DNA from: Lama guanicoe
Taxonomy: Eukaryota
Length of the DNA stretch: 64,000 bases
Assembly: GCA_013239625.1 (NCBI GenBank)
Contig: MU053594.1
Location: forward strand, 1,678,127 to 1,742,126
Reading direction: 5' to 3'
Shown here: positions 1 to 36,899 of the stretch, one piece after another
Numbering within the stretch: the first letter of the stretch is position 1
Layout: each line of letters starts with the position of its first letter
Program-made: the position numbers and the translations under genes
Notes under the pieces: model-generated
The model's database searches: none
The model's input: the letters and a program-made list of their open reading frames with translations, nothing else
What the model was told of the DNA's origin: nothing

Positions 1-39
1 GTGTGTGTGTGTGTGAGTGTGTGTGTGTGTGTGTGTGTG
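1..39. repeat. (GT)n microsatellite with one GA interruption
   Basis: Direct reading; the same interruption is present in the paralogous tract. Confidence 0.95.
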
Positions 40-1305
40 GTGTTTAAATACAAGCTTTAACCAAGAGTAAGAAACATTAGTCTTTCTCCATGACCAGATA
101 ATAGATCTTCCTCACGAGCCCCCAAACTCTGAAGTACATCTAGTGTGCTGCTCAATTTCCTGTCAGTCAAGCATTGCAAATGTGGTCAAAGGCTTATCGA
201 TTTTCAACAACAAATGTGAAAGTGATTATGCCTAATGAAACTATTATGTGAACGCCTTAAGTGTTTCCTTGGTGGTTTCCCCTCTGTGAAAAGACAGACA
301 TTATTTTCTTTCTCCAGGACATTTTCAAAAGGAACACTGGTATAAATGGTAGGAAAGAAAAAAACAAAGTTTGTTTCTGGTCAGAACTCCTTAGCTCCAT
401 GCTAATAAAATCCAGATTTAAAAAGAGGAGACAGAGAAAAAGAAAGTGGCTGTGTTCAGACTTTTGGCTCAGGGGTGGCCTAGAGGAACACCTGCCCTGG
501 GGAAATGTTCCACGAGATAAGATCCTGCCACAGAGCTAGAAGGCGCCCTGCAGGGGGACAGGGTGCACAGGCTGGAGCAAATCACTGCACATTTCCTGCC
601 TTCTTCCTTATAGTCCCCTCTGTGGTTCACTCAGACCCTTGGAGGTGTCATGGCCAAGCTCTAGTTTTCCAAGATCAGACAGCCCCCCAGGTTTGGCTTT
701 CTCTGCTTCTCCGCCAGGCAACCTCAAAACGCTAACATGTGGTCAGATCCCTGTCTGTGAAAATGACCAGTCTCTCAGACACCACAAAAAAGAGATTCGC
801 AGGTTGGACGGGGCCTCTTTCCCCTTCCTTTAAAGCAGAGGTGGCCGTCCTTGGGTCTGGATGCTGTCTATTTCTTACCACTTTTACATGCAACCTTTGA
901 AATGAGCAGAGAAACCAAAGACCAAAAAAGAAAAGGCATTCAAGTGTACCACTCTGGACCATGTTTGCACTGATTGATCCAATGTAATACTAAGAACATG
1001 AGGACATCTGAGGGCAGACTACCTACCTAACAACAAACTCAGTAGTCATGTAAATTCAGTGTAAGTTCCTTCTCCTGTAGGGCTGTGCAGAGCTTAAGGG
1101 TAGATTGTTTCTTATTTTTGGTTCCTTGACATCCTGTGCCCTCCTAGTTTCCCCGTCCTCTACACACTCTGAGCCCTTGAGAAGTGCTTACTGAGTTTTG
1201 CTCATGAACTCTGGCTCCAGCATCCTATCCGATTAGTCTCCTCTCTCCAGTGTGCACCTGCCACCCAAAAGAGGTTCTGATGACATTGTTTTTTTTTTCC
1301 CCTAG

Positions 1306-1739
1306 TGGAATCTACATCCATGACCAAGATCTCCACAACAAAGCAAAAGACAACCCCAGCTCCAAAACCAACCACAACCCGCAAACCAGCAGCCACACCC
1401 CGCAAAACAGCAGCAACACCCGGCAAACCAGCAGCCAGAACCCCCAAATCGAAATCCACACCCCGCAGACCGCCAGCCACAACCCCTAAACTGGCATCCA
1501 CAACCCGTACCACAGCCAGAACCCATACCACATCCACAAACTATACCAAACCCAAACCCCATACCATAGTCACAAACCATACCACATCCACCAACCATAG
1601 CAAACCCACACCCCGTACCACAGCCCGAACCTCAGCCCGAACCTCAGCCAATAGTTTGGCCAACACAGCCTTCCGCGGCCCCATCAGATACGCCATCCAG
1701 CTCCTGCTCGTCTTCCTCACCAGCAAACTCCTCTTCTAG
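1306..1739 (+). CDS. PLET1: PLET1-like paralogue A, terminal coding exon (Thr/Pro/Lys/Arg-rich stalk plus GPI-anchor signal); upstream exons lie outside the window
   Basis: Poly-T/cctag acceptor at 1301-1305; open frame to TAG at 1737-1739; C-terminus LANTAFRGPIRYAIQLLLVFLTSKLLF resembles the PLET1 hydrophobic tail; paralogous to exon 4 of copy B. Confidence 0.88.
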
Positions 1740-2272
1740 AAAGGACGCTACGGGAACACTTGCTTCTGCTGCCACTGCATCCTTCTATGTTCAGTTCCAA
1801 GCCAGGACTCTGACACACGTGAACAAAGCTTTACGTTCTCAGACGTCCACCTCCACTCCCGCTCCTTCAGACCAAAACGGAGACCTGAGGGTCACTCGGT
1901 GAGGGGAACAGTCCACTCAGTGGTGTTCAACTGTGTGTCTCAGGACACAAATTAGGCTTTTTGTAACTACTTAGACCTAGATTTTGGCTCCTGGCTTAAC
2001 ATGTTCACAGCCAGTTACACAGCCAGTCCAAACTTTTATTTAGATGCAACACCAGTAGCATCTGAAGGGCAAGAAAATAAGAATGTACCAGGTCTTGAGT
2101 AGTCAAGGATAGGGAAAGATCATGGTATAAAGGCATTATTTTCTGTGTCATACCAACTAAACTATACCTCAAACAAGAATAATGAATGTGTTAAATTCAA
2201 ATATGTCTTTAATGAGTGATCAATTTAAAATATAGAAAATGTCATCTAATTTTATTCATTTATGGGAGCATT

Positions 2273-2278
2273 AATAAA
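2273..2278 (+). terminator. Polyadenylation signal, PLET1 copy A
   Basis: AATAAA ~530 nt after the stop codon, followed by a GT-rich tract. Confidence 0.65.
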
Positions 2279-2539
2279 ATCAATGGAATGGTGAGAGTGT
2301 GTATGTTTTCGAAGCCAGATATAAGGGTAACATTTTCTCAATTTTAATTTTTCTCGACTGCAAACTGGTCAGTTTTCCCCTAGTGGTAATCTCCACTAAG
2401 AAACATGGGTAAAATATTTATAATATTCATAATATAACATAAAACCAAAACAAAACATGGTATTTCCAGTAATAAGTAACAAAGTTTTCTTTTAATAGCT
2501 ATGCTAAATTCCAAGATGCCAACTTCAGTGACATATGTG

Positions 2540-3180
2540 ACCCTAGTGGCTGTGAGGTAGCATCTCTACACAGTGGTATCTCTTTCTGGTTTTGATGTGC
2601 ATTTTCCTAATGACTATTAAAGTTGAGTATTTTCATCTGCTTATTTACCTTTTTTTGAAAGTTACATCATATTCATATTATACTTATTTACCATTTATAT
2701 ATCTACTTTGGAGAAAGTATTCAGATTTTAAAATTGGGATATTTGTCTATTTATTGTTGAGTTGTTAGTGTTCTTTGTATATTCTGGATACTAGGCCCTT
2801 CTCAGAAATATAATTTGCAAATATTTTCTCCCAATATTTGGGTTATTTTTTCACTTTGATAGTTGTCCTTTGAAGAACAAAAGATTTTAGTTTCGATAAA
2901 GTCCAACTTATCTATTTTTCCTTTGGTTGCTTTTGTTTTATGCATTATACCTACTAAACTGTTGCTTAATCCAAAGCCATGAAGATTCATACTTATGTTT
3001 TTGCTAGGGTTTTAAAGCATTTCGGTCATTGAGCCACCTTGAGCTGATTTTTATACGGTGTGACAGAGGGGTACACTTTCACTCTTTTGCATGGGAGTAT
3101 CCTGTTTTCCCAGCACCATTTGTTGAAAAGACTGTTTCACCCTGATTGAACTATCTAGGCACCCTTGTCAAAAATCTGTT
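2540..3180 (-). mobile_element. Old LINE-1 fragment (3' ORF2 region), continuing at ~3621-3711 and ~6817-6925
   Basis: Typical antisense L1 text (tttgcaaatattttctccca, ccagcaccatttgttgaaaagact) interrupted by younger insertions. Confidence 0.75.
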
Positions 3181-3711
3181 GTTATACAATAATCCATAAA
3201 AACACTGAATCACTATGTTATACACTTGAAACTAGTATAACTTTGTAAGTCAACTATACATCAATCTTTAAAAGTAGTTTTTTAAAAAAAGGATATGATG
3301 GGTAGAAGAATTTATAAGTTTCAAGCCAAAGTGGAGTATGGCAGTGTTTCCAAGCATACAAATTTATGATTTCATAAGAATTCCTAATTTCATAAAAGGA
3401 GTCATTGGACCAATATAGCAGCAAATTGTTTTAATTCTAGCATTCAAAATAACTTTCACTCCTTTTTGGAGCAACCTGAAGCAAAAACACTGTCAAAGAT
3501 ACATTTAGTAAATTTCATTTCTTCAGAGTCATTGGAAAAAGTTTTTTAATCTGGTATGAATCTCCTTGCAACAGAGGTTTAATCTTTCTGTAATAAAATT
3601 TATCCTTAAATGACAAAAAAGTTCATCGTAAGTATATGAGTTTATTTCTGACCTTGCAGCTCTGTTTCATTGATCTACATGTCTATCTTGATGGCAGTAC
3701 CACAATGACTT

Positions 3712-6700
3712 TTTTTTAAATTAAAGTATAGTCGATTTACAATTAGTTTCAGGTGTACAACATAGTGATTCACAATTTTTTTACACTATACTTCATTTGA
3801 AGCTATTATAAAGTATTGGTTTATTCCCTATGCTATATAGTATGTCCCTGTAGCTTATTTATTTTATACATAGTAGTTTGTACCTCTTAATCCCTTACCC
3901 CTATCGTGCCCCTCCCCTCCCCCTCTCCCCACTGATAACTACTACTTTATTCTCTTTGTCTGTGAGTCTGTTTCTGCTTTGTTATACTCATTCACTTGAG
4001 GTTTTTTTAGATTCTGCATATAAGTGATAACATACAGTGTTTGTCTTTCTCTGACTTATGTCACTAAGCATAATAAGGTCCATCCATGTTGTTGCAAATG
4101 GCAACATTTCATCCTTTTTATGGCTGAGTAGTATTCCATTGTGTATATACACCTCATCTTCCTTAACAATTCATCTGTTCATGGACACTTAGGTTGCTTC
4201 AGAGTCTTGGCTATTGTAAATAATGCTGCTATGAACATTGGGGTGTATGTATCTTTTCAAACTAGTGTTTTGGGGCTTTTTGGATATATACCAAAGAGTG
4301 GAATTGCTGGGTCATATGGTAGTTCTATTTTCAGTGTTTTCAGAAACTTTCATACTGTTTTCCACTGTGGCTACACCAATTTACATTTCTGTCAACAGTG
4401 TACAGGAGTTCCCTTTTCTCCACATCCTCATCAACATTTGTTATATGTGGTCATTTTCATGACAGCCATTCTGTCAGGTGTAGGGTGTTATCTCATTGTG
4501 CTTCTGATTTGCATTTCTCTGATGAGCAATGTTGAGGGTCTTTTCATTTCCCTGTCAGACATCTGTATGTCTTCTTTGGGAAAATGCCCATTCAGGTCCT
4601 CTGCCCATTTTTCAATTGAGTCGTTTTTTCTCTTCTTGTATTTTTTATCAATTTTTCATTTTTTTCAATCAATTTTTTCCTCTATATCTTATAGTTTTCT
4701 GAGTACAGGTCTTTTACTTGCTTGGTTATTTTATTCCCAGGTATTTTATTTTTTTGATGTGATTATCAATGGGATTGCTTTTTAATTTCTCTCTCTGATA
4801 CTTCATTGTCAGTGTATAGAAATGCGACAGATTTCTCTGTATTAATTTTGTATCTTGCAACTTTGCTGAATTCATTGATGAGTTCTGGTAGTTTTCTGCT
4901 GACGTCTTTAGGATTTTCTATGTATAGTATCACGTTATTGGCAAACATAATATACATAGTGAATTTTACTTCTTCTCTTCTGATTTGAATTTCTTTTTCT
5001 TCTCTGATTTCTGGGGCCAGGACTTCCAATACTATGCTGAATAAAAGTGGTGAGAACGGACATCCTTGTCTTGTTCCTGATCTTGAAGGAAGTGCTTTCA
5101 GTTTTTCACCATTCAGTGTGATACTAGCTGTGGGGTTCTCATACATGGTCTTTCTTATGTTAAAGTATGATTCCTCCAGACCCACTTTGTGGAGAGTTTT
5201 TACCACACATCGTTGCTGATTTTTTTTCAAAAGTTTTTTTGATACCTATTGAGATGATTACACGATTTTATTCTTCATTATTTTATTTTTTAAACATTTT
5301 TCATGAGTTATAGTCATTTTACAATGTTGTGTCACATTCCAGTGTACAGCTTCAGTTTTTTAATGTGCTGTATCACATGGATTGATTTGCCAATATTGAA
5401 TCCTCTTTGCATCCCTGGAATGAATTCCACTTCACTATGGTGTGCGATCCTTCTAATGTATTGTTGCATCTGGTTTCCTATACATTTGTTGAGGATATTT
5501 TGTGTCCATGTTCATCAGTGATATTGGCCAGTACTTCTCTTTTGCTGTGATATCTTCAGCACGTTTTGGTATCAGGGTGATGCTGGCCTTATCAAATAAA
5601 TTCAGAAGCAATCCTTTCTCTGTAATTTTTTGCAATCATTTACGAAGGATCTAAGTGTGAAATCTCCTCCAAATGTTTGTTAGAATTCACCAGTGAAGCC
5701 ATCTGGTCTTGCACTATTTTGTTAGGAGTTTTTTTTTTCTTAATTCCTGATTCAATTTCATTACTTGTAATTTGTCTATTCATGTTTCCTATTTCATCTT
5801 GGTTCAAGCTTGGGAGACTCTACATTTTGGAATTTGTCCATTTCTTCTAGGTTGCCCATTTTATTGGCATGTGGGTATTTGTAGTGATATCTTGGGATCA
5901 TTTGTATTTCTGTGGTGTTGGTTGTAATTTCTTTTTCATTTCTGATTTTATTGCCTTGGGTCCTTTCTTGTGTCCTGAGATCTCTGGCTGCACAGCCCTG
6001 GGCTTCCCAGCGCCTGTCCAGTGACCTGTAGGGCCAGGTCCTGGACCCTCTGGTGGACAGAGCCCTGTCCAGGAATGGCTGTGGGCTCTGAAGGTCTTAA
6101 AGAAGTCTGCCTGCTGGTAGGTGGGGCTGTGCCCCCACCTAGGTAGTTGCCTGGCCTGAGGTGTCCCAGGATTGGTGCAAAAGGCTGCTGGGTAGACTCA
6201 GGTCCTGGCATTAACAAGCTAGAGGGAGGATTCCACAAGGGTGTCGGCCAGTACCAATGTCCACATGGCAGAGCAAGCTCCCAGAAATGGCTTCGGCCAG
6301 TATCTGCCCCCAGAACGGACTCCAGTTGCCTCCTGCCTCTCCAGGAGTCTCTCCAAGATCACTGGGTGGATCTGACCCATTCCTTTCAAATCACTGCTTC
6401 TGCCCTGGGTCCTGGAGCATGTGAGATTTTGTGTGCACCCTTTCGGAGTGGACTCTCTATTTCCCCTAGCCCTCTTGCTCTCCTCACAGTAAGCCCTGCT
6501 GGCCTTCAAAGCCAAATGTTCTGAGGGCTTGTCTTCCCAGTGCAAGACTTCCAGGCTGGGGAGCCCAAAGTGTGGCTCAGACCCCTCACTCCTTGAGGAG
6601 ATCTGCAATTGTCGTTATTCACTCTGGGGCAAGGGTCTTCACGACTCCTCCCCTCCAACTCATCTCCTTGTGGCTCCTTCTTTATATCGTTAGTTGTGGG

Positions 6701-6816
6701 AGATCTTTTCCAGTAGCGTTCAGTCTTTCTCATCAATAATTACTCTGTACATAGCTGTAATCTTGGTGTGCCCGTGAAAGGATGTGAGCTCCTTGTCCTT
6801 CTACTCCACCATCTTT
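3712..6816 (-). mobile_element. Internally deleted LINE-1 retaining 5' UTR, ORF2 pieces and 3' tail, nested in an older L1
   Basis: ORF 4766-5230 carries RT motifs ([21 protein letters not shown]); 5' end AAGATGGTGGAGTAG on the minus strand; poly-T at ~3710; imperfect flanking duplication ccacaatgactt/ccacgctgtctt. Confidence 0.8.
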
Positions 6817-6989
6817 CCACGCTGTCTTGATTACAGTAGCTTTGTAGTAAGTTTTGAAATTTGCAAGTGTGAGTCCTCCAGCTTTGTTGTTGTTTCAAGA
6901 TCATTTTGGCTATTATGAGTCCTTTGTTGGAGTTTTCAGTATACAAGTCTTGCACTTGTTTTGTTACACTTACTCAGTGTCTTTACTGA

Positions 6990-8275
6990 ATATTTTCAAG
7001 TTCACTGATACTTTCTTCTGCCACTTCAAATCTGTTGTTAAAGTCTGTTAATTCCTTCTAGTCAACTTTTCATCTCAGTTATAGTTTTCAACTACAAATT
7101 TGCTGTTTGGTCCTTTTTCTCATTTCTGTTTCTTTACTGATACTCTTTACTTGGTAAGACATCATTCTGATACTTTCCTTTCATCCTTTAAGCATGGCTT
7201 CTTCTAGTTTTTTGAGCATATTTATAATAATTCAGCTAAAGGTTTTTCTAGTAAGTCCAAGATCTGGAGTTCCTCTGGGACAGTTTCTACTGACCAAGAG
7301 TTTTTTCCTGTACACAGACCATACTTTCGTATTTCTTGTGCGTCTTATAATTTTTATTGAGTATCGAACATTTGAAAAATACAATGTGATCACTCTGCAC
7401 ACCAGATTCCCTTCCCCCCAGGGTTGGCTGTAGTTTCCACTGGTTATTATTGCTTGTTGTTGCTGCTACTGCTGTCTGTTCAGTAAACTTTATGAATTAG
7501 TTGTCTGAAGTCAATATTCCTTATCATGTGTGGCCACTGAAGTATAGCTTAGTGGCCAGCTAATGAATAATCAGAGATTTCCTAAATGCCTTGAATCAAT
7601 AAGTCTCCCAACATTTGCCACATTCCTCTCTGCATGAATTCTGGGGCATGCCATCACTGGTCACATAGGCAGTTTACAACTCTGCCTTAGCCTACATTTT
7701 TTTACGTGCATAGCTCCGCAAGGTCAGCCAGAGATGAGACATAAGTGCTTCTCAGGTCTTTTCTGGGCATGTGTAGAGCCCCGTACATGCACATGGCCTT
7801 TCAGATTCCCAGGAATTTGTCAGAGCATTCCAAACCTCCCAACCAAGATCTCATTCCCCAGTGTTTCCTTTTACATTTTTTGTTAGTCCCAGTTGCAACC
7901 ACTGCTTCAGGCAGATGCACTGTTAAAAACTCCTCACTGATTATTTTCAACAAATACCCTAGCAATAAGTCTGTTTGCAAAGAACAAGTTCTGAAAGCAA
8001 TTTGTGGACAGGTCACATAGTGACAATTGTCTGGAAATGAGGCTTCGGGGCGAGCTCCAAACCCATTCTGTCCCTTTCCTTTTGGCTGCTACTTTGCTGG
8101 TCTTCATGGCTACCAGAGTTGCAAGGTTGTTGCTTCCTAAAGCTGCTTGAAGAGCTGGGGTGACAGGGATGGGGACAGGGCAAGTTAGAACGTCACGATG
8201 CCCACTGTGCTCGGTAAGATCCAGCAGTTTTTCTTAAACAAACATTTTTCTTCAGAGGTCCTCACTTCCTATTCC
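6990..8275 (-). mobile_element. Ancient L1 (L1MC/ME-like) 5' region
   Basis: Degenerate antisense L1 5'/ORF1 text; shares motifs (atgtggccactgaagt) with 20920-21410. Confidence 0.5.
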
Positions 8276-8823
8276 GTAAATACTTCTCTTGAAGAAACAT
8301 GCATAAATACCCTTTTGATTCAATTCTACGTGTTTTTGTTTTCTTTCTATTCAGAAAATAGAATACTTCTTTCCTCTTTCCTCCTTCAGTGAGTGGATTA
8401 AAATCACAGAAGAGATATGAGAAAATACACTTTCTGATTTTTTCAACTAGTTTCTTTGTGTTATGGTGTTTATAGTGAAAAGTGTCAGGCAGGAGCAAGA
8501 TGGACCAAAGTCATTTCTTTCCAAGGAAATAAATATCAATCCAGAACCACAATCTTTCCAGTTTGGTGCTAGTCACAAAATGAACCAGGTTAGGGAACAT
8601 GTTTGATAAAGAAGAACTGGAAAAGGATGTATAATGTTCCATGAGAACAAGGGCTTTTATGCCTGAGTTTCCCACAGGGAACAGAGTGGAGATTCTAAGC
8701 AGGCCAGGTATGAGATGATTACTCAACTCTGGATTTCACTTTGCCGGCATTCACCCTTCTCATGGCTTTCTTCACATACCAAATGCTGAGCTGACGGAGA
8801 TGCTAATAAGTCCATGACCAGTA

Positions 8824-9003
8824 CATTCCCCCCCGTCCTGGGCCAATCTGGAACTGATAAAGGATCATGGTGGCAGATACTGGGAGATTCATTCCTAGTG
8901 ATAACTTAGGCCAAATTCCAGAAGCCAGTTCATTTTAGGGAGGAGTGCAAGGGAGATTTGCCTGTATGATGTCACCCAGAAGATCCAGCCCAGAGCATAT
9001 AAA
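8824..9003 (+). promoter_or_regulatory. Proximal promoter of PLET1 copy B
   Basis: TATAAA at 8998-9003, ~60 nt before the ATG; CRE-like TGATGTCA at 8967-8974; TGATAA at 8855 and 8899; CATTCC at 8824 and 8890; CCAAT at 8843. Confidence 0.55.
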
Positions 9004-9063
9004 CAGGTGAGCTGTAGACCTTACCCAGTCCCAGGTCCAGCAGTTTCCAAACAGACCAAGACC

Positions 9064-9247
9064 ATGGCAGTCCTTGGTTCCCCACTGCTGCCCCTGGTGC
9101 TGTCTCTGTGCCTCGGACTGCTGGTTCCTTCGGCCAAGTGTCAGTATCCTATCGGCAAATGCATAACACTGAGTAACATCATCGCTGCCACTGATGGGGG
9201 AGTCCAGGCCTTCCCAAAGAGCTATAAAAGCAACACAATGTACACAG
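9064..9247 (+). CDS. PLET1: PLET1 copy B exon 1 (signal peptide MAVLGSPLLPLVLSLCLGLLVPSA...)
   Basis: Strong Kozak accATGG; hydrophobic leader; donor G|gtgagt. Confidence 0.92.
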
Positions 9248-12200
9248 GTGAGTAGAAGCCATCTTCTCTGCTGTCCTTGGTTCTCTGAGGTGAGGTAGCC
9301 AGAATTCTGGAACGTATCCCCTTCCATCGCTGCTTTCAACTACACAAGCAAAGCACGTGTTTTTGACTTGGATGGGACATAGAAACGGGGAGACTGAGAA
9401 CATGGAAGCGAATGGATGGGATGGGGCGGCCTCTGCAAGTTCCCTGTGTGACCTTGAGTATATCCCAGATCTCAGTGTAGCCGATTCCGTGTGAGGGCAC
9501 AACTGCGGCAAGGTGTCTGACTTCAGTAAGTTGGGCTTTGTCACAAAAAAACCTTACAACAGCCTGTGTCGGGCAGGGGTGGGGGTCATCTGTGTTATTT
9601 TCAGGGATAATAAATGCACCGCAGTTGGTAGCTCTTTCCCATCCACTTGATAGGCAGTGCCACCGTGGATGACTGTATACTGCTCAACGTTAGAAGGCAC
9701 TGCTCACACTTAGGCTATGGGTGAAAAATCTGGTGAGCTAGACAGGGAGGGAATTACTCTCCCAACGCAAGTATGAGCCTGAAGCTGAGAGAAGTGAAAT
9801 GACTTTCCTGGGGTCTCACGGCTGGTAAGCAGCAGAGCTGGCCGGATGGCAGATCTTACTCTTTTTGTTCCTAATCCAGTGCTTTTTTGAGGTGCTTAGA
9901 AATATTTTATGAATATTCCTTTGGGATCAGTCAAGCCTACATGTCAAGGCAAGTGCTGTCTAATGACTTTCTTAATAACAACAAATTTAATGTGGCTGTT
10001 TACAGGGACTAGTGCATTGAGTCCTCCTCGACCTTCAAGGTAGATAATGTTGTCATTCCCAGTTTGTGGATGAGAAAACAGAGGCACAGCTGTTAGTACC
10101 TCGCTAGGTCACAGCTACTTGAGTGATGGACCAGGCCCTCAGAGACCCTGCTCGTGGCCAAGACACGATTTGCCTCTCAATTACAGTAATGAGAGCTAAG
10201 ATTTCTTACTGTGGTGTGGGCTGATCCAAGGGCAAATGCTATTGTCTGCCCCATTTTGCAGGTAAGAACTGAGGCATAGGGAAGTTAAAGTTTTACCCAA
10301 GGTCACTAGCAGTTAGCAGGTAATATTGGAACCTAAAACATACCCAAGGTTTGTCCAGCTTTACCCTGCCAGGCTGTCCAGCTTCAGAGCCTACCTTCTC
10401 GTCTGCCATATTACCCTGCCCGGCTTAGAACTCGGAGAATTTCAGGATGACATCCACACCCAGGCTCTACACACTGCAGGCTTCAGCATAAGCATGGCTA
10501 TGGCCTGCCTTCGCACAGTCATCCTGGCTTGTCCTGGTTTCCATTTTCTCGTGGGGAGTGTCACTGTGTGTCTCAGTTGGGATGGGGCTCCCTATGACCC
10601 ACTCCTGCAGACAGCAGGTCTTGTCCTAACCAGGACAGGGAAGATAAACTTGTAATTCAAGATGAGAGGACCATCTTGTATGATCTTGTATACAGGGAAG
10701 GACCTGGGTGGTCTGAGGGACTACTGCAAAAGACACCTCAGACCTCTGACTTAAGATAACATATCACTAAGTGATGGATTTTGTGGCTGAAATGGAAGAG
10801 AAAGAAACCTATCTTGGGAAGATGTGGGAGGGGGGGCAGTGGAGCCTCTTTACAGTAGGAAGACATGAGAAAGAAGAATCAAAAGCCAACACACCAGACC
10901 CCTCGAGGGGACCGTGCTAGATGAGAAGAGAAATCACGCCATTTACACAGGGGTTGATTGCAGCAGAGTTTCAGGAAGGGGAAGGAGGAGAGGAACCATG
11001 GTTCCCTGAATGGCTACTATGTGCCATGCACTCCCCAAAACCTCATTTGACTTCATCTCAGCAAGAAATGTGCTAACGCTCTGGGATAAACTGATTTGCT
11101 ACAGGAATCATTTAGTTGAGACTCAAAATCCTGTATTCTGGGTGATGGGAAGGGCCTGATCCCACACCTGGAATTACACAACAGGCTACATGATTTCCTG
11201 GCAGACTGTCATTATCGGACCTGGCTGGGACTTGGACTATTGCAGAGACTGAGTAAATGCCCACACAGGCCAACAACTTTCCCTGATTTTAAAGTTGAAT
11301 TTTTTTTTAATTTCAAGATTTGTGTTAAAATTGGTATAAATGACATATATAAATGGCTTCACAGGTTCTAAGACACAAGTGCAGCTCAGGCAATATCTTA
11401 GAACAGGTTCTCTGGGTATGCCTTGGTATCAGTCAAAGAAACTCGTAATGCAGTAGCATTCCTATTACAGCTGTGCCGGGTAAGCGCCTGCCTCCACTGT
11501 TTAACTTCCATGGGCCAGAGAAATGTAACTTGCTTGCCCTTCTCCCTGAACCCTCATATTTAAGGCACTAAGCAACATCGGATGCACAACCTTTTTTTCT
11601 TTAACATCAACCAATGAATAGTGACTTAGTGCCTTCCAGGTGCCCAGCACTGGGGATAGCCAGATACTGACACACATGAAATGACAGCATATAGTACAAG
11701 CCAGAACATAATTGAGTCCTCAACTCAAGTAAACATAAGTAAATGAATAAATGATCCAGGAGTGAGAGGGCAAGAGGGCTGAATTGGCCCAGAGGCGGGA
11801 TCTTGGAGAGTCAGTGGGGCTGGGATTCGTGATGAGAAGGAAGGAAGGATTCCAGACAGGCACCCGACATGAACAAAGGCCAGGGGCAGGCGAACCAGGT
11901 GCGTCTGCAGAACCAGACAAGACGGCCACCCCTAGAGTGGGGGTGCGAAGAGCAGAGTGAGCCGGCTAATGAGGCTCATGAGAGCCATGTGTACTGTAAT
12001 TAACACAACAGAAGCAGAAATGTAAAACCAGAAATGTTTAGAGGCTCTAAAATACAAGGGCAGGCACGTCGAAGGTTTTGGACAGCTGTGGGTCCTGATG
12101 GAAGTGTTGGCTGGGGAAATCTGATCTGGTTGCAACCTGGAGGGAGGAGACTGAGGAGGCCAGGAGGAGTGAACAGAGCATGTAAGCCAGGGAGAAGGGA

Positions 12201-13624
12201 ACAGAACAAAGGACAGAGGCAGGAGCATGCCTGTGGGAGAGCTGACAGGATTGATGACTATCTGCATGACACGTCCCTTGTCACCATCCACCTCACCATC
12301 GTGCACACATCCAGGACAGATGCCAGGTTCTGGCTGAGCAAGTCAGGGCCCCGGGGATCTGGCTCAGATACCTTGATTGGCAAACACAAACAAGCAGAAC
12401 AGAGAAATGTTTCATACTAACGACAACAATCGAGATTTATCTGACACCCACCCAGATTCAAGTCTTTACACACTTCTCTTTACTCTTCCCAGGAAACTTT
12501 CAAGATAACGTATCCTGATCTCCATACACTGAGGGATAATGTCGTTATCCTCAGACCTAGAACCAACCCTTGTGCAAAGTGCACACTCAGTAAATATTTG
12601 TGGAGTGAGTGATGAACAGTAAAGAAACCAAGGATCAGAGGGGAAGTGACCTGGCCTTAAATGTTAGAACTAGAATTCAGATCCAGGACTGTCTGATCCT
12701 ATTCTGCGACACAGTCAGTTTTCTTTGCTTTGTGAAGAAGACTTTCAAGGAGTTTTGGGTGGCTGAGAGGGCCCTAAAGACTACCACCTGAGCACTGAGA
12801 GATTTGTTCAGAAAGGATCTTCTAAGGGAGGAAATGGACAAACTGAAATATTCTCTTGAAATCCCCTACCCATTACACCTTAGAATGCTGAAGTAACCAG
12901 TGGAATTAACAAGTGTCAGCGGGGTCCCCGTGAGCGCATACTAAGCTAGGTCATCAGACTAGAGGGTTCAGGGAACCCTGAGTGGTTATTTGACCCGTAC
13001 TTAGATTAGTGCCTTTGGGGCTCAGAGGCCCTGCCTCCTTCTTCCCTCAGCCTCAACAACAGAGACCAAGAACATCAGCATTTCTGGGACCAAAAAAAAA
13101 CCAAAAACACTTGCCTTGGCTTTGACTTGGCAGTAATGGTCCCTTATTTCATGAAGCACTTCCCAGGGGAGCCCACTTGACCCTTTCACAGGCATCGACC
13201 CCTTCTCTCCCCACACTCCACTCCCCCTGAGAGAAGGGCAGAGCTCTCATCTTGAGCAGGGCTCAAGAGGTTAAAAGCCAGCCAGGATCTCATCCCTGCT
13301 ATGCAGCAAAGCAGAGTATAGGTCTTCTGTTGTCCAACTTCTCCACCTTTTTCTGGAGAAAACTTGGAAAACAGACACACACAAAAACAGCTAGGGGGGA
13401 AATAAAAATCATTTATCATCCCACTCACAAGAAATCACCATAGTTAATATCTAGATGTATTTATTCCCTTCCAGATTTTTTGCAACTTCTTTTATAAGAA
13501 TGGGACCTTACTATACGTACATATATTTGTAACTTTTTTTTTCACACTTCATTTTGATTTCATGACCCTCATCTCTTGTCTTACGGCACAGATGGTTCAT
13601 TGTTTCCTTATCATTTCCTACCAG

Positions 13625-13823
13625 TAATAGTGCCTGTGACTGACAACACTGAAGCTGTGATCATCCGAGCAATGTACAACATGCACCCAGTAGGCTTCTG
13701 GAAAGATGTAGACAAGAATTGTACAAACAGTGTCATGTACGAACTGAAGAACCCACGCATGAAATGGTTCAAGACAAGATGGGTATCTCCTGGGGACATG
13801 GACCTATCCTCAGTCCAGCTACA
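13625..13823 (+). CDS. PLET1: PLET1 copy B exon 2
   Basis: ccag acceptor; VPVTDNTEAVIIRA...GFWKDVDKNC...RWVSP resembles PLET1; donor CA|gtaaga. Confidence 0.92.
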
Positions 13824-14066
13824 GTAAGAACCTGTCCATGTATCATTCGCTTTGGGCTTTTGCAATTTCATATTGGGTTTCTGCAGTTTTATACTGACCT
13901 TGGAGGACTCATAATACAACCCCGATGTGACGTGGAGGATTCAGTAGCTGCACTCCTTTTCCACCTCCCCATTCTTTGACTACTTTTATCTATAGGAGTT
14001 TCTACACTATACATGTGCACACACGCACACATACCACGTATGCTCTGCACCAAGAGAAAGAACTGG

Positions 14067-14547
14067 TGTTAAATAAAACCAGAACCAGACAGTTGCTAAA
14101 GCAAGATGAGTGAATGAACCAATGAATGAATGAATAAAAACAGATTTTATTCAGGACTATTGCAATTAAGACAAGAGACCTCAGTATAGAACAAGTCTCA
14201 ATGCTGAATGCAACATGGGTAAGTGGGGATTTACAGCCAGGGAACAGGGTAGGAGTGTCAATGGATAGGAAAACACTAAAAGGAAACATCAAACCCTGTA
14301 AGGGGGACTCTCGCCAAACTGACCTAACAGGATTCTTGCTGAAGACAGGCCAGGGTGATCCCAAAGTAGACGATGAGAAACTCAATCAGATAATAAAAGT
14401 GATCAGCTATCGAGGGTGGGAGGTTCGTGTTATACTGACTTAACAGGATTCTGGCTAAAACTGGATTTTCCAAGGAAGTACACAGATGGGCCTAGGAGAA
14501 CGTTCCAGACTCCAACTAAACTTTGGTCAAGCAGAGAATCCTTGTCA
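14067..14547 (-). mobile_element. Solo ERV1-class LTR (MER31-like)
   Basis: TG...CA termini; 4-bp target-site duplication CTGG on both sides; minus strand begins TGACAAGGATTCTCTGCTTGACCAAAG. Confidence 0.8.
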
Positions 14548-14825
14548 CTGGCACCCTGTTTGTTTCAAATTCTCTTTACCCCTTCCCACCCCAACCCAAC
14601 TCACTCCTGCTAGTCTGGGGCAGACAGTACTCCAGAGCCAGGCAGGGCAAACAGCAGTGACAAACAATTAAAAATAAAAACACTCTGGTACTGAAGACAC
14701 CTGGCCACCTTGGAGCTCCCCTCTCTGCCTTCTCCACTGCAGTCCTCCAGGAGCCCTTGCTAAGCTAGGGTGCAGAGAAACTGCCTGTGGCCAAGAACCT
14801 GGGGGAGGGGTGCTCTTGGTCCCCA

Positions 14826-15560
14826 TGTTTACCAAGTCAAACTTGAATCCGCTTGCCCACTGAGCAGCAGACTCAATTTACTGACACCAGGTTGTGGTGA
14901 AGGAAAGTACAGCATTTATTGCAGGCACCAAGCAAGCAGAATGGGCAGCTCATGCTCAAAAGACATGAGCTCCCATCAGCTTTCTGGGCAGCTCTTATAA
15001 AGGCTACATTTGTGGTGAGGATGCAGGGGCCATGACTTTCTTCTGATTGGTTGGTGATGTTGTAACAGGATGATGTTTCACAAATTGTAAACATCAGTCT
15101 TCCGATCCCACCCAGTCCGGGGTCTGTGTGCTTATGCTCAGCATGTAGTCACTGTCCTCCACCTGGGTCTTACTTCCTGCAAAACAACTCAAAGATCTGT
15201 GTCACATTATTATCGATAACCCTCGAGGAGGAACCAGAGCTCTGTTTTATCATGGAACTATTGTTTCTTGACTACTTTGCCTTTGTTTCTGCACTCCTTC
15301 ATTTCCCTCATTAGTAACTGCTTGAGTCTGCTCTTTGGAACTCAGGGTAAGCTTAGGAGACTAACGCTTTTCTCTACAAACAAGAAATGGGGAGACACAG
15401 AGGGGCTTTTGTACCAGGGAGGGCCCCACAGGGTCCTGCTTGGATTCAGTTTCCCCTTTTCTTTGATGCTCCTCAATCCTGAGGGGAACAGGGGATAAGA
15501 AAGAGGATAACGTTCTAAGCAGAGAGTTTAATCATAAACTCGGCAGAGGAATTCACTTTT
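14826..15560 (-). mobile_element. ERV1-class 3' LTR (14826-15448) with adjoining polypurine tract and internal remnant
   Basis: Minus strand reads AGAAAAGGGGAAAC then TGAATCC..., ends in CA at 14826, and has an AATAAA near 14915. Confidence 0.7.
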
Positions 15561-17290
15561 AGGGGGACCTGGTTTCACCACCACATGAAGAATCATGTTT
15601 TTCAAACACATGCATTTTGGAAGTGGCTTGCTGGCAGAACGTGTGGTGATTGTGTAATAAAACTGGCTTCCTAGTGTTACACAAAATGGACACATTCAGA
15701 TTCCGCGCTGAGGCCACCTGAGGGCTCATGTTACATGCTAACAACAACAACAACAAACTTCCCTCCCAGCTAGGGATTTGTTATCAAATTCACTTTAGGA
15801 AGCAAAGGTTGAGAGATCCTTACACTTTGACTGCCGTTTTGTTCTGAAAGGGCAGGTCTCACCATCGGAGCCGTGTCCATTACGAGCAGCCACCAGGGGT
15901 CGAGGGACATTGGAGATAATGATGCAGTCAAGCCTCCCCACCCTCTGCTGCCACGCCCTGCGCCTGGTGGAACCTAGCTGGCTCTGAAGGAGGAACTGTT
16001 ATGCCCACAGACAGACGTGCAAGAGTGGAATCCAAAGGAAGCTGCTACAGTCCAGCCTCACAATGACAGCAGGCTCTTACTAGCCAGTCAGGACTCATGA
16101 GGGCAGTGACTTTCCTTTCATCTCACCTCCTTAAGGCCTCCACACTCCACGCAACAACAGATAAAAGACCACAGAGTGACAATCTGCAATGGAAACACAT
16201 TCCCACTGACAGGGCAGTCTCCAGACCCCCCCTCACTCTCACCACGATGATGCACTGGCTCCTCTGCTTCTTTACCGTGCACAACAAGGCTGACACCTGG
16301 AGGGGAGCAGCATACAGGATGGGAGAGCCCCTTCTGTGGGGTAGGGCACAAAAGGGCATATGAAGAGGTTCCTGCCCACAGAGCTTCACAGTGAGGTGTA
16401 GGGAGGCAAGGCCCATGGAGAAGTAAATACTCAGGTTAGACAGCACCTCCTCAGAAAGAATCCTCTAAACTCCCAGATCAACTCCCGGCTTCCTGTTTGC
16501 TCTCTCTCATAACTTCCACTGCTTCATCAGAGCGCGTATCACAATGGTGATCAGTTACTTAACTTGTTGGTCGATTATTTGTTTAAAATCTCCCTCTCTA
16601 AAGGGACTTTAAGGGCCATCAAGGAAAGAAGCATGCCAGTGTTCACCAGCGTCCCCTTAGCACCAAGCACAGTGACTGGCATGTCGTCCACTCACGAACT
16701 GTTAAATGAACAAGAGACTGAACGGGCCCACTGACAGAAGAGCAACACACCAAGCTGCACCGCTCGTTTAATGGCCATTAAGTACCTGTGACACTACGTG
16801 TCAGGCATTGTGGACAACAGAACCTGCCCTCAAGGAGCTGGTCCTCCAGTGCGAGGAGAGGCTGATGGCAAAGCAATGCAGCACAGGGGCATGTCTGTCT
16901 GATGGAGATCTATCTGGGTTCATGATGATAGGGAGAAATGACTTCCCAGAGGTTACTGATGAGTCTGTAGGCAGATGTTCCCTGGGCCGGATTATTACGA
17001 TCAGAAAGACTAACCCGAAGGAAGACCAGAGGTGTATACCAGCCTGTGGGGAGTTCAGGGTGCTGGCGTGGGTGGGGGTGGGGGATGGACATGGCCTTGT
17101 CTGGAGCAAGATCATGAAGGATCTTGGTCAAGACAATATAGAGCAGACCAGGACTTATGATCTGCTAATTGTGCTGTAGAGAATGTAGGCACAACAGCAA
17201 TTAAGGGCTGGGGTCTGCTGGCAAGGCAGCAACTGTGAAATGAACTTGTGAATTCCTCACCATTACCTCTCATTTATTTGCCCTCCACAG

Positions 17291-17352
17291 AACCTTCACT
17301 GTCGATTCGCAAAAAGTGGCTGCATTTTCTACCCAGGATCTGATGAGAAGAG
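17291..17352 (+). CDS. PLET1: PLET1 copy B exon 3 (QTFTVDSQKVAAFSTQDLMRR)
   Basis: ccctccacag acceptor; G|gtaagt donor; 62 nt keeps the frame; resembles the PLET1 QAFTV segment. Confidence 0.9.
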
Positions 17353-18123
17353 GTAAGTTCCTCTGCAGCCTATTTCCGTATCTGGCAGTGAAATCAATCA
17401 GCCTGGAAAATTATTTTGTGGGTGTCCTAGCAAAACAGAGTCTTCTAGTCATGTGTTACCCAGATACCAGCTGAGGCTCCTAGCACCTTGAGATTGGCAT
17501 AAGATTAGCTCGGCCCCTTATCCTGTGCCCTGTGCAAAACAAAAGCCATCCCCCTCCCCACCCCAACATTTCTGCCAATTCTGAGGGGACTCTGAGTCTC
17601 TCAGTCACCTTGACTCCGGACTCTGGCTCAGGACCCGTTTCCAGTCAACACCACACAGACGTGGCTATGAGAGTCGGCTGCTCCCTCAGTTTCCACAAAG
17701 AATTCCCACTCACACAAAGCCTTCATCGGTGGAGCAGGTGTTACCGAAGGGCTTATGCGATGAGAAGGGAGATTCGCACAAAGAAGGGCTGATAGCACAG
17801 AAAACCAATCATTTCACTAGTTCTCGGAGTAGCCTCTGGCCTCCAGCACCACCACCAGGAAATCCCACTGGCCTTTCCCAGGCTGCAGTCCCCAACTTCA
17901 AGCCATCCTGAGGCTCCTTGTCCCTTGTCTCCCTTCTCTGCCCCTTTGCTTCTCTCTTGTCTCTTTCTGGGGAGCTAAAACAAATTCAAGGAACTGAGGT
18001 TCAGAAAAGACTGGTAACTTGCTTAAGACCACACAGAAAGTAAATGGCAAAGCTAGGACTCAAATTCCACATCTTATACTTTTTTCCACTTTTCTTTGAC
18101 TAACATGAAAACTATAAAGACAG

Positions 18124-18125
<2 letters not shown>

Positions 18126-18166
<41 letters not shown>

Positions 18167-18188
18167 TGTGTGTGTGTGTGTGTGTGTG
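18126..18188. repeat. (GT)n microsatellite in PLET1 intron 3
   Basis: Direct reading. Confidence 0.95.
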
Positions 18189-19455
18189 GTGTTTAAATAC
18201 AAGCTTTAACCAAGAGTAAGAAACATTAGTCTTTCTCCATGACCAGATAATAGATCTTCCTCACGAGCCCCCAAACTCTGAAGTACATCTAGTGTGCTGC
18301 TCAATTTCCTGTCAGTCAAGCATTGCAAATGTGGTCAAAGGCTTATCGATTTTCAACAACAAATGTGAAAGTGATTATGCCTAATGAAACTATTATGTGA
18401 ACGCCTTAAGTGTTTCCTTGGTGGTTTCCCCTCTGTGAAAAGACAGACATTATTTTCTTTCTCCAGGACATTTTCAAAAGGAACACTGGTATAAATGGTA
18501 GGAAAGAAAAAAACAAAGTTTGTTTCTGGTCAGAACTCCTTAGCTCCATGCTAATAAAATCCAGATTTAAAAAGAGGAGACAGAGAAAAAGAAAGTGGCT
18601 GTGTTCAGACTTTTGGCTCAGGGGTGGCCTAGAGGAACACCTGCCCTGGGGAAATGTTCCACGAGATAAGATCCTGCCACAGAGCTAGAAGGCGCCCTGC
18701 AGGGGGACAGGGTGCACAGGCTGGAGCAAATCACTGCACATTTCCTGCCTTCTTCCTTATAGTCCCCTCTGTGGTTCACTCAGACCCTTGGAGGTGTCAT
18801 GGCCAAGCTCTAGTTTTCCAAGATCAGACAGCCCCCCAGGTTTGGCTTTCTCTGCTTCTCCGCCAGGCAACCTCAAAACGCTAACATGTGGTCAGATCCC
18901 TGTCTGTGAAAATGACCAGTCTCTCAGACACCACAAAAAAGAGATTCGCAGGTTGGACGGGGCCTCTTTCCCCTTCCTTTAAAGCAGAGGTGGCCGTCCT
19001 TGGGTCTGGATGCTGTCTATTTCTTACCACTTTTACATGCAACCTTTGAAATGAGCAGAGAAACCAAAGACCAAAAAAGAAAAAGCATTCAAGTGTACCA
19101 CTCTGGACCATGTTTGCACTGATTGATCCAATGTAATACTAAGAACATGAGGACATCTGAGGGCAGACTACCTACCTAACAACAAACTCAGTAGTCATGT
19201 AAATTCAGTGTAAGTTCCTTCTCCTGTAGGGCTGTGCAGAGCTTAAGGGTAGATTGTTTCTTATTTTTGGTTCCTTGACATCCTGTGCCCTCCTAGTTTC
19301 CCCGTCCTCTACACACTCTGAGCCCTTGAGAAGTGCTTACTGAGTTTTGCTCATGAACTCTGGCTCCAGCATCCTATCCGATTAGTCTCCTCTCTCCAGT
19401 GTGCACCTGCCACCCAAAAGAGGTTCTGATGACATTGTTTTTTCTTTTTCCCTAG

Positions 19456-20096
19456 TGGAAACTACATCCATGACCACGACCTCCACAACCAAGCCAGTCG
19501 CAACCCCAGCTCCAAAACCAGCCGAACCCTGCAAACCAGAAGCCGCAACCCGCAATCCGGCAGCCACTGTTCCCATGCCGGCAGAACCAATCCCCATACC
19601 ACCAGTGACATCCTCCATACGGGCATTCCTAATCCCACCCAGAAACCGCAAACCGGCAGCCACACCCCGCAAACCAGCATCCACACCCCGCAGACCCGCA
19701 GCCGCACCCCGGAAACTGGCAGCCACACCCCGCAAACCGGCAGCAACACCCCGCAAACCATCACCCACACCCCGCAAACCATCACCCACACCCCACAAAC
19801 TGGCAGCCACACCCCGCAAACCGGCAGCCACAATCCCACAACCAACAACCACACCTCGTACCACAGCCACAACCCACACCACATTCAAAGACCGTAGCAC
19901 ACCCAGAACTCACACCAGAGCCACTCCCCCTACCACATCCACAAAGCGTACCAAACCCTCACCCCGTACCACAGCCCGAACCTCAGCCCCAGCCCAAACC
20001 ACAGCCAATAGTTTGGCCAACACAGCCTTCCGCGGCCCCATCAGATACGCCATCCAGCTCCTGCTCGTCTTCCTCACCAGCAAACTCCTCTTCTAG
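19456..20096 (+). CDS. PLET1: PLET1 copy B exon 4 (cationic Thr/Pro-rich stalk plus GPI signal)
   Basis: cctag acceptor; open frame to TAG; C-terminal signal identical to copy A. Confidence 0.92.
19662..19829 (+). repeat. Coding 21-bp minisatellite, 8 units of the TPRKPAA-type heptad
   Basis: Unit acaccccgcaaaccggcagcc repeated with few changes; decayed units on both sides. Confidence 0.9.
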
Positions 20097-20629
20097 AAAG
20101 GACGCTACGGGAACACTTGCTTCTGCTGCCACTGCATCCTTCTATGTTCAGTTCCAAGCCAGGACTCTGACACACGTGAACAAAGCTTTACGTTCTCAGA
20201 CGTCCACCTCCACTCCCGCTCCTTCAGACCAAAACGGAGACCTGAGGGTCACTCGGTGAGGGGAACAGTCCACTCAGTGGTGTTCAACTGTGTGTCTCAG
20301 GACACAAATTAGGCTTTTTGTAACTACTTAGACCTAGATTTTGGCTCCTGGCTTAACATGTTCACAGCCAGTTACACAGCCAGTCCAAACTTTTATTTAG
20401 ATGCAACACCAGTAGCATCTGAAGGGCAAGAAAATAAGAATGTACCAGGTCTTGAGTAGTCAAGGATAGGGAAAGATCATGCTATAAAGGCATTATTTTC
20501 TGTGTCATACCAACTAAACTATACCTCAAACAAGAATAATGAATGTGTTAAATTCAAATATGTCTTTAATGAGTGATCAATTTAAAATATAGAAAATGTC
20601 ATCTAATTTTATTCATTTATGGGAGCATT

Positions 20630-20635
20630 AATAAA
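20630..20635 (+). terminator. Polyadenylation signal, PLET1 copy B
   Basis: AATAAA paralogous to 2273-2278. Confidence 0.65.
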
Positions 20636-20919
20636 ATCAATGGAATGGTGAGAGTGTGTATGTTTTCGAAGCCAGATATAAGGGTAACATTTTCTCAATT
20701 TTAATTTTTCTCGACTGCAAACTGGTCAGTTTTCCCCTAGTGGTAATCTCCACTAAGAAACATGGGTAAAATATTTATAATATTCATAATATAACATAAA
20801 ACCAAAACAAAACATGGTATTTCCAGTAATAAGTAACAAAGTTTTCTTTTAATAGCTATGCTAAATTCCAAGATGCCAACTTCAGTGACTGAATGCCAAC
20901 TTCCACCTGGCCTTTCTCA

Positions 20920-26321: not shown

Positions 26322-26445
26322 CTATTCTCCTTTATAGACTACAATATTATTGTCCGTTTCATATACTTTGACTTTGTAAAGAACTCCCACAGGAAGAAAT
26401 TTCTGGAGGTTTTCCCAGATATATACAGCTACATTTTCTGTCGTG
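26322..26445 (-). CDS. PTS: PTS exon 6
   Basis: [15 protein letters not shown]...[13 protein letters not shown]; cag acceptor. Confidence 0.97.
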
Positions 26446-26638
26446 CTGTAGAAGAGAAGGAAAGAAGGTCAAAAGGCAAATAAACAAAACTTCATGTTTA
26501 ATATTTACAGAGAAAAGAAACTCGAGTTTTAAAAGATATCATCAGACGCGAACTCAAGAAATTACACAATAATCAGATCAAACGTTAAAACCAATTCTTC
26601 TTTCTTTCTATTTATATATGGTAGAAACAGTCACTCAC

Positions 26639-35114: not shown

Positions 35115-35228
35115 TCAGATGGTTACGAAGGAGCCATGGAACCCATAAGGCATTTGCACAGGCACCTCCGCTCGGCCCAGTTCTTCAAAGTTCTTGGCAT
35201 CCAAGACTAAGAGGAAATTACTTTCATT
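35115..35228 (-). CDS. BCO2: BCO2 exon 12
   Basis: [37 protein letters not shown]. Confidence 0.97.
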
Positions 35229-36317: not shown

Positions 36318-36428
36318 CTGGTTGGGGGTGATCACCACAGAAAGAATAACCCCACCATCTTCTTCGCTCGTTCCTGGTACTGGAACAAAAACAGGTTCTG
36401 AGGGATAAAAGCCAACTTCTCTCCAAAC
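36318..36428 (-). CDS. BCO2: BCO2 exon 11
   Basis: [37 protein letters not shown]. Confidence 0.97.
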
Positions 36429-36899
36429 CTGTAAGTCACCAAAAAAAAAAAGGATTTGATAAAAGACTAGTTATGAGCTGGAAATTTTCTACAGCTTTTG
36501 TCACTCCCAGCGTGAATCTGACTGTCAGCCTAACAGTCCAGCAGTAGAAGAATCAGGCTTACTGACTTGAATACAGGAGAGGGAGCTCTTGCAGCTGCAT
36601 CACCAAGCACAACTGGTGTAATTATAATTTCCCATCAACCTTAAATAGATGTGTCCCATGATTTCTCTCAAAGTACCATCAAGCATAGAATTATTCTTCT
36701 GGGCTTGTGGTTCATTTAGATTCCCTACAGGGAATAAACCCTAACCTACGTGACTCTGTGGTTCTTAAACTTAATAAAAGTAAGTGGCTGAGCTGCTTAA
36801 ATATTAAAGAATCTCAATACCTACCTTAAACAAAACAAATTAATTCTACAGGCAGAGCAGGTTTTGTACAAGTTCAGAAAAGAAAGAGATTTTCATTAC

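Follow-up and report, generated by a model that had tools for sequence, protein, structure and literature searches.

Tandem PLET1 genes in the guanaco: a probable camelid whole-gene duplication with putative gene conversion and diverged coding segments

How many PLET1 (placenta-expressed transcript 1) genes does the guanaco carry, and how old are they? The question is raised by a stretch of 64,000 nucleotides from Lama guanicoe (assembly GCA_013239625.1, contig MU053594.1, positions 1678127-1742126; hereafter the window), in which two PLET1 terminal exons lie in the same orientation, both with an acceptor, an open frame, the same glycosylphosphatidylinositol (GPI)-type tail and a poly(A) signal, as a preliminary description had pointed out. 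That description took them for the product of a recent duplication and considered that the array might be larger or variable in copy number. We additionally fetched the 100 kb upstream, giving 164 kb of local sequence (positions before window base 1 are negative). In our reading, which we consider quite probable, the whole PLET1 gene was duplicated in tandem in camelids before the split of Camelus and Vicugna, and the upstream and downstream copies (A and B) later underwent gene conversion, with islands of coding sequence remaining diverged. We regard it as a real but fairly ordinary lineage-specific tandem duplication, in which the pattern of conversion and divergence is clear and not unusual.

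Extent of the duplication and the two gene models

The peptides of copy B exon 1 (9064-9246) and exon 2 (13624-13824) match Camelus placenta-expressed transcript 1 with E values of 1.6e-29 and 8.2e-39, respectively. A word-based homologue search gave matches in camelid proteins only, a Vicugna pacos protein sharing a 90% cluster with the Camelus PLET1 matches, and a profile search of 1.84 billion representatives reached non-camelid mammals, with 47 proteins at E <= 0.001; the named clusters checked among those 47 are mammalian PLET1 except for one frog protein, and one more cluster is nameless. As a member of the PLET1 family, copy B shows the four coding exons with the same split-codon junctions, and exons 1, 2 and 4 of copy A have intact sites.

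When window positions 1-3500 were compared with the rest by BLAST, two same-strand matches were found at E = 0, namely 1-1405 with 18150-19555 (98.65% over 1,407 columns) and 1369-2532 with 19720-20889 (94.70% over 1,170 columns). They define a direct repeat of 1-2532 and 18150-20889, the similarity ending sharply at 2532/2533 and at 20889/20890. Upstream of the window, -16255 to -3944 aligns with 2540-15020 (12,093 columns, 95.3% identical, plus short end pieces), and the whole is a tandem duplication of the entire gene with a unit of ~18.4-18.8 kb. A run of 3,937 N in the scaffold ends just before window base 1 and the window itself contains no N, so that the last exon of copy A, the junction and all of copy B lie on a single uninterrupted stretch. 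The units are as follows:

About -16255 to 2532 (contig ~1661871-1680658), plus strand: unit A, a whole-gene repeat, interrupted by the 3,937-N run
2533-20889 (18,357 bp), plus strand: unit B, with the entire PLET1 copy B
2526-2540, no strand: the junction 2532/2533, where the end of unit A is joined to the interior of a dispersed repeat; from 2540 on, the sequence again resembles the start of unit A

About 7 bases at the junction match neither side. The 5' breakpoint lies inside a dispersed repeat, which extends upstream past unit A and gave 3,099 first-look candidates genome-wide, 40 of which were scored and found mostly 73-84% identical. By the L1 consensus this repeat may be the 3' end of an L1, the searches having identified it as a dispersed repeat only. 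Because of the unmatched bases and the breakpoint within a repeat, the junction points to a non-homologous join, by which the PLET1 3' flank would have been linked to the interior of the upstream dispersed repeat in the camelid stem. The segment at the unit boundary (2540-2900, plus strand) has thousands of dispersed genomic relatives.

Copy B is complete, as had been proposed from the first inspection. Its exons of 184, 199, 62 and 641 nt splice to 1,086 nt, which encode exactly 361 amino acids (aa) with GT-AG at every junction, and their limits coincide with the domain blocks of other PLET1 proteins in an alignment of 28 sequences. The features of copy B, all on the plus strand, are:

8873-9211: promoter, 5' untranslated region (UTR) and first 147 coding bases; 338 bp without A/B difference, with a TATAAA-like motif
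9064-9247: exon 1, encoding the signal peptide and the first part of the globular domain, with 9 A/B differences within 9211-9232
13625-13823: exon 2, core of the predicted reeler-like domain; a divergence island (Kimura two-parameter distance, K2P, 0.088) between near-identical blocks
15851-15977: alternative last exon of the 169-aa RefSeq models (AGLTIG...PGGT, stop), without GPI tail
17291-17352: exon 3 (TFTVDSQKVAAFSTQDLMRR), forming the last beta-hairpin of the domain, with an AG acceptor and a GTAAGT donor
19456-20096: coding part of exon 4, 212 aa after the split codon, stop at 20094-20096; expanded stalk and GPI-signal tail
19646-19855: 21-nt tandem repeat, 8.9-9.9 copies, encoding PRKPAAT-type heptads, 7 of them regular at copy B residues 226-274
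20097-20889: 3' UTR with AATAAA at 20630, followed by flanking sequence up to the limit of unit B

Exon 3 was located through the spliced model of Camelus bactrianus LOC141575847 (exons 2-3-4), whose third exon reads TFTVDSQKVAAFSSQDLMRR. The same model ruled out 15851-15966, which had been tried as exon 3 of copy B and would have given 379 aa. The form ending at 15851-15977, as in the 169-aa models of V. pacos and C. dromedarius, would end before the stalk and the GPI tail, resembling the minor isoform of the mouse. It may be an alternative or read-through end, and it may also be a prediction artefact, since neither AATAAA nor ATTAAA is present between 15977 and 17290, i.e. after this last exon and before exon 3.

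Copy A lies partly in the window and partly upstream of it, again on the plus strand:

-9798 to -9615 (contig 1668328-1668511): exon 1, open frame, intact GT/AG sites
-5237 to -5039 (contig 1672889-1673087): exon 2, open frame, intact GT/AG sites
1-1305: 3' part of intron 3, with 1 substitution against copy B in 1-1294
1306-1739: coding part of exon 4, 143 aa after the split codon, stop at 1737-1739; stalk rich in Thr, Pro, Arg and Lys, and GPI-signal tail
1372-1507: degenerate 21-nt repeat of 6.5 copies, in exon 4
1740-2532: 3' UTR with AATAAA at 2273, followed by flanking sequence up to the limit of unit A

Exon 4 follows a pyrimidine tract and an AG acceptor in both copies, starting at 1306 in A and 19456 in B, and both last exons are open frames rich in Thr, Pro, Ala, Arg and Lys that end in an identical hydrophobic tail (...ANSLANTAFRGPIRYAIQLLLVFLTSKLLF), with AATAAA ~535 bp past each stop. 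If its exon 3 has 62 nt as in copy B, the copy A protein would comprise ~292 aa.

Mosaic identity between the copies

The identity between A and B is a fine mosaic, in which difference-free runs of 1,046, 843, 674, 603 and 449 bp, together with shorter ones, alternate with stretches at 90-94%. The longest are:

5729-6775, no strand: longest difference-free A/B run, 1,046 bp, a putative conversion tract
11551-12394, 12422-13096, 7019-7622 and 7733-8182, no strand: other difference-free A/B runs, putative conversion tracts

The flanks of exon 4 show the same pattern, with 1 substitution in 1,294 bp (1-1294) and 1 in 878 bp (1655-2532), a total of 2 in 2,172 bp. Between these flanks (1306-~1650 vs 19456-~20010) the copies are heavily diverged, the downstream one being 207 bp longer; the diverged stretch starts exactly at the splice acceptor, and the extra length is mostly the 21-nt tandem repeat. 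Within copy B exon 4, the segment 19519-19645 (…AATVPMPAEPIPIPPVTSSIRAFLIPPRN…) is without equivalent both in copy A and in the A-type protein of Camelus, and consists of the 21-nt unit only in part.

The near-identical blocks, including the flanks of exon 4, are most likely gene conversion tracts. Conversion was tested on the 27 residues of exons 1 and 2 at which the Camelus A-type and B-type proteins differ. Window copy A is B-type at 6 of the 7 diagnostic residues in positions 1-49, the same stretch as the difference-free 8873-9211, and A-type at all 6 in residues 50-61 and at 12 of 14 in exon 2, where the remaining 2 match neither type. Two residues, V21 and A41, are common to both window copies and occur in neither Camelus type. 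Some segments thus group by species and others by paralogue at the diagnostic residues, a phylogenetic incongruence. Because copy A is B-type in its first part, shares V21 and A41 with copy B and shows no difference from it over 8873-9211, the proximal promoter, 5' UTR and first 147 coding bases would appear to have been converted from B to A in this lineage. Repeated interlocus conversion after the duplication would in this way have homogenised large parts of introns, proximal promoter and UTR into blocks of 99-100% identity.

It could be argued that the duplication is real and old, and that the 99-100% identical blocks stem from assembly, gap filling or polishing with short reads. Two differences in 2,172 bp are indeed at the allelic level, and block 1-1294 starts right after the 3,937-N run. 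However, most of the identical runs are found in gap-free sequence of both copies, far from any N, and the tracts are numerous, 300-1,046 bp long and sharply bounded, as expected from conversion. The true A-type core of exon 4 moreover sits between identical flanks, which would require two switches exactly at the edges of the core, and we regard such an origin of the blocks as rather unlikely.

Primate red and green opsin genes are tandem paralogues that have been homogenised by conversion and have retained coding differences. The camelid pair resembles them in having near-identical introns and flanks together with paralogue-specific coding segments, and differs from opsin-type pairs in that the retained differences include a fast-evolving repeat core.

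The three visible coding segments are all islands of divergence: the end of exon 1, where the 9 differences of 9211-9232 fall within an otherwise identical 450 bp; exon 2, with 23 differences over its 199 nt and flanking blocks at K2P 0.003 and 0.022; and the repeat core of exon 4. The 22-nt cluster at the end of exon 1, whose 9 changes are mostly nonsynonymous, would form part of the paralogue-specific signatures. Under duplication followed by conversion, these three segments would have stayed diverged, and the 21-nt unit would have expanded in B, giving a longer stalk. Exons 1 and 2 together differ between A and B by 29 nonsynonymous and 3 synonymous changes (nonsynonymous and synonymous divergence per site, dN 0.107 and dS 0.034). 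The nonsynonymous excess has a one-sided Fisher p of 0.029, against which it must be said that there are 32 differences only and that conversion distorts the counts. Selection may keep or drive the paralogues apart, but positive selection is suggestive only, because the sample is small, and in the repeat core the divergence of the sequence may mechanically stop conversion tracts with no need for selection. That diversifying selection has kept the paralogues different despite ongoing conversion, the three coding islands surviving in both Vicugna and Camelus, is a tentative proposal that we find possible and somewhat doubtful. If it is true, the pair would consist of two surface glycoproteins with different stalk lengths and with glycan loads of 6 or more sequons against 1, which could be distinct adhesion or spacing molecules at the camelid feto-maternal interface, or targets of host-pathogen or maternal-fetal conflict.

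Status of copy A and age of the pair

Exons 1 and 2 of copy A, whose absence would have told against the preliminary description, were found upstream of the window with open frames, and exon 3 falls within the N run. Copy A could still be a decaying pseudogene, B alone being functional, given that its exon 3 is unseen and that no V. pacos A-type protein was found in protein collections. We nevertheless judge this improbable: exons 1, 2 and 4 are open with intact GT/AG sites, the A-type frames are open in three Camelus species, including the spliced exon 2-3-4 model, and copy A has kept three N-glycan sequons in exons 1-2 as well as the GPI tail.

The blocks that appear unconverted diverge by K2P 0.073 (2540-5900) and 0.088 (13445-13944), vs 0.003-0.011 in the near-identical ones. 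These genes are the same as several RefSeq/GenBank models: C. ferus PLET1 (XP_032328659.1, 207 aa) and PLET1-like (XP_032328664.1, 128 aa), C. dromedarius XP_064338063.1 (169 aa), C. bactrianus LOC141575847 (XP_074213032.1, 207 aa) and, for copy B, V. pacos XP_031531376.1 (169 aa), which is 100% identical over exons 1-2 and the alternative exon. Copy B shows 100% identity to the V. pacos PLET1 RefSeq protein over 127 columns, and its closest Camelus protein is C. ferus PLET1-like, with 95-99% identity. Copy A comes closest to C. dromedarius PLET1, with identities of about 87-92% (90% over 127 columns), and its exon 4 is 86% identical to the last exon of C. bactrianus LOC141575847 vs 66% to copy B. 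In a maximum-likelihood (ML) tree of 17 sequences the camelid clade received support of 100/100 within Cetartiodactyla, and copy B of the window was grouped with V. pacos PLET1 and C. ferus PLET1-like at 98/91. Both PLET1 and PLET1-like are annotated in C. ferus, with a longest contig of 21,415,058 bp for each. At the protein level each copy thus has its own Camelus counterpart, the last exon of the Camelus B-type not being among the sequences compared.

Since A groups with Camelus PLET1 and B with Camelus PLET1-like, the duplication would predate the Camelus/Vicugna split, and we would place it in the camelid stem, after the separation from other cetartiodactyls. The split dates to roughly 16-25 million years ago, which fits a neutral divergence of 7-9%. 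With 0.92 changes per column, the camelid stem branch of the ML tree is long. Towards the end of exon 2 (alignment columns ~150-165) most species have an N-x-T sequon, SPNSxN[IV]T, where both camelid paralogues have SPGD[MI]DLS. The loss of this sequon in both paralogues and the length of the stem branch point to accelerated change around the time of the duplication.

A recent origin, with the pair forming part of a larger or copy-number-variable array, is suggested by the near-identical flanks of the last exon and was the preliminary interpretation; we consider it very unlikely. For this assembly it is contradicted by the 7-9% background divergence and by the separate Camelus counterpart of each paralogue. 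Self-BLAST across the 164 kb (100 kb upstream and the window, including 43 kb downstream of the pair) revealed no third PLET1 copy, and none was found elsewhere in the 2.05-Gb assembly, where the exon 2 peptide gave 2 matches among 6 candidates scored and the exon 4 region occurs in 2 places. Upstream of the window, where further copies had been considered possible, exons 1 and 2 of copy A were found, and the locus comprises two copies only. That two haplotypes of one locus were assembled in tandem is hardly credible and can be rejected on the divergence, which is far beyond the allelic level, and on the Camelus counterparts, both types being annotated in C. ferus with the same longest contig size, and the junction, of a 3' flank with the interior of a dispersed repeat, likewise lies in N-free sequence; some haplotypic redundancy in the assembly is nonetheless indicated by one unplaced contig of 355 bp. 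This contig (C40494:1-355) is probably a haplotype remnant: it matches intron 1 of copy B on the minus strand at window 9276-9630 with 99.4% identity, against 90.7% for copy A.

Several points weigh against an old, fully intact and converted gene pair. The node joining copy A of the window to C. dromedarius PLET1 is supported at 82/71 only, and the dating does not extend to the B-type stalk. Exon 3 of copy A, expected near -858, would be inside the 3,937-N run, so that the visible part of this copy comprises exons 1, 2 and 4. In the identity blocks, short-read polishing or gap filling could have copied the sequence of one paralogue onto the other, and 1-1294 abuts the N run. Finally, the camelid RefSeq models that were found are all fragments (128, 169 and 207 aa), the 169-aa ones without GPI tail; they read through after exon 2, end in an alternative last exon or begin in the middle of exon 2, and none has 361 aa.

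Both genes were thus already known as fragments in the RefSeq annotations of camels and alpaca, to which the complete 361-aa form of copy B is added here. A literature search, beyond which lie ~1.7 million PMC articles and the subscription journals, retrieved nothing published on a duplication of PLET1 in camelids. In practical terms, the present models correct the fragmentary RefSeq models of camelid PLET1 and provide a compact example of conversion alongside coding divergence.

The encoded proteins and the setting of the locus

In the 28-sequence alignment, PLET1 proteins consist of a signal peptide, a domain of ~120 residues with two near-invariant cysteines, Thr/Ser/Pro-rich repeats of very variable length and a conserved tail. 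The GPI-signal tail (small residues, a spacer and hydrophobic ...ILLVFLTSKLLF) is identical in A and B and aligns with the tails of 23 other PLET1 proteins; its last ~15 residues are hydrophobic, with Kyte-Doolittle means over 11 residues of 1.4-2.2. The two copies compare as follows:

N-glycan sequons in exons 1-2: N56, N68 and N93 in copy A; N93 only in copy B
N-glycan sequons in exon 4: 3 in copy A; 0 in copy B
Stalk length: 113 residues in copy A; 183 residues in copy B
Ser + Thr in the stalk: 46 in copy A; 52 in copy B
Lys + Arg in the stalk: 23 in copy A; 33 in copy B
Regular PRKPAAT-type heptads: no regular array seen in copy A; 7 in copy B

The stalk is basic, rich in Pro and Thr, and presumably O-glycosylated. 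At 361 aa, the copy B protein exceeds all other inspected sequences that have an intact tail, the longer database entries having N-terminal extensions or retained introns. The guanaco proteins had been described as elongated, which is borne out against baboon (206 aa) and pig (210 aa in the available text of PMC5187848), but a long Thr/Pro stalk is general in PLET1, as the deer (285 aa) and cotton rat (306 aa) proteins illustrate.

The globular domain is predicted to be a reeler-like beta sandwich. In the AlphaFold model of sperm-whale PLET1, residues 41-150 have a mean predicted local distance difference test score (pLDDT) of 86-97 in blocks of 10 residues; the fold is all-beta and exon 3 forms the last hairpin. 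The best solved match of this model is the reeler domain of F-spondin (PDB 2zot, 3coo; Foldseek E 1.1e-6). The VIA comparison of the two gave a Z of 11.0-11.8 and a root-mean-square deviation of 2.7-3.1 over 116-118 residues, the next unrelated fold reaching Z 9.5, with a sequence identity between the PLET1 and reeler domains of 16-17% only. The Pfam Reeler family (PF02014) matches 8 of the 28 PLET1 proteins (best E 4.3e-6), and it counts against extending the assignment to camelids that their own sequences gave no match, the fold being predicted for the whale protein. Single camelid exon peptides matched no Pfam family at E <= 1. F-spondin and other known proteins with this domain are of another kind, being large and secreted into the matrix, not small and GPI-anchored. 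In the literature searched we found no paper pairing PLET1 with the term reeler domain, and the available portions of the mouse and pig papers (PMC4848516, PMC5187848) describe the protein without naming any domain. Both camelid genes would accordingly be expected, if the whale model holds for them, to encode a signal peptide, a reeler-like domain of ~120 aa, a stalk and the PLET1 GPI-attachment signal, with different residues at the surface of the domain.

One protein of the frog Discoglossus pictus (309 aa) combines two PLET1-like domains in tandem with numerous N-x-S/T sequons and a hydrophobic tail of similar type (...ISKLLS), which suggests that the PLET1 family is older than mammals and that its domain can duplicate internally.

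Camelids, like pigs, have an epitheliochorial placenta. According to the available text of the mouse study (PMC4848516), Plet1 is a GPI-anchored, N-glycosylated protein of the trophoblast stem cell surface, with a minor short isoform that has no anchor, and it directs trophoblast differentiation. Pig PLET1, as presented in the corresponding text of PMC5187848, is N-glycosylated at Asn-67 and Asn-94, is confined to the trophoblast of an epitheliochorial placenta, and shifts to the apical face towards the uterine epithelium. The camelid proteins share with these the signal peptide, the beta domain with two near-invariant Cys, the Thr/Ser/Pro-rich repeats, the GPI-signal tail and the PTS neighbour. 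They differ in being encoded by two tandem genes, where the same portions of the two papers describe one, and in having longer and basic stalks (33 Lys and Arg in 183 residues in B), with an expanded PRKPAAT heptad array in B. By analogy, the camelid pair may represent two expressed GPI-anchored glycoproteins of the epithelial or trophoblast surface that have diverged in function. For the reasons just given, namely the role of mouse PLET1 in differentiation, the apical position of the pig protein on the trophoblast and the placental type of camelids, a second camelid PLET1 with altered surface residues, glycosylation and stalk length would be a candidate for lineage-specific placental or epithelial biology.

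In public sequencing runs, 0.92-0.94 of the sampled words of copy B exon 4 and UTR were present in 14 runs (5 organism labels, 6 studies), and four RNA runs contained 0.11-0.21 of them only, which provides no evidence of expression or tissue. A 35-mer spanning the junction had 0 matches among metagenome contigs, a result that is uninformative on the junction either way. LINE (long interspersed nuclear element)-derived sequence accounts for a large share of the 6.5 kb that separate the junction from the copy B promoter; five other long open reading frames, located between junction and promoter or upstream of unit A, matched no Pfam family. Two further N runs occur in the upstream 100 kb, at -56978 to -56847 (132 N) and -43972 to -42962 (1,011 N). 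The remaining features of the window are:

1-43, no strand: (GT)n microsatellite directly after the 3,937-N run, matching the (GT)n at 18126-18192 in copy B intron 3
4766-5245, minus strand: RVT_1 fragment of an antisense LINE (Pfam), between the junction and the copy B promoter
26325-26465, minus strand: PTPS-family (PTS) exon, the downstream neighbour, by family match
35124-53635, minus strand: four RPE65-family exon matches, by family match

The synteny of PLET1 with PTS is therefore present. Of the two neighbours first named, PTS and BCO2, the former agrees with the PTPS-family exon, and the RPE65-family exons are presumably those of BCO2, a name taken over from human synteny.

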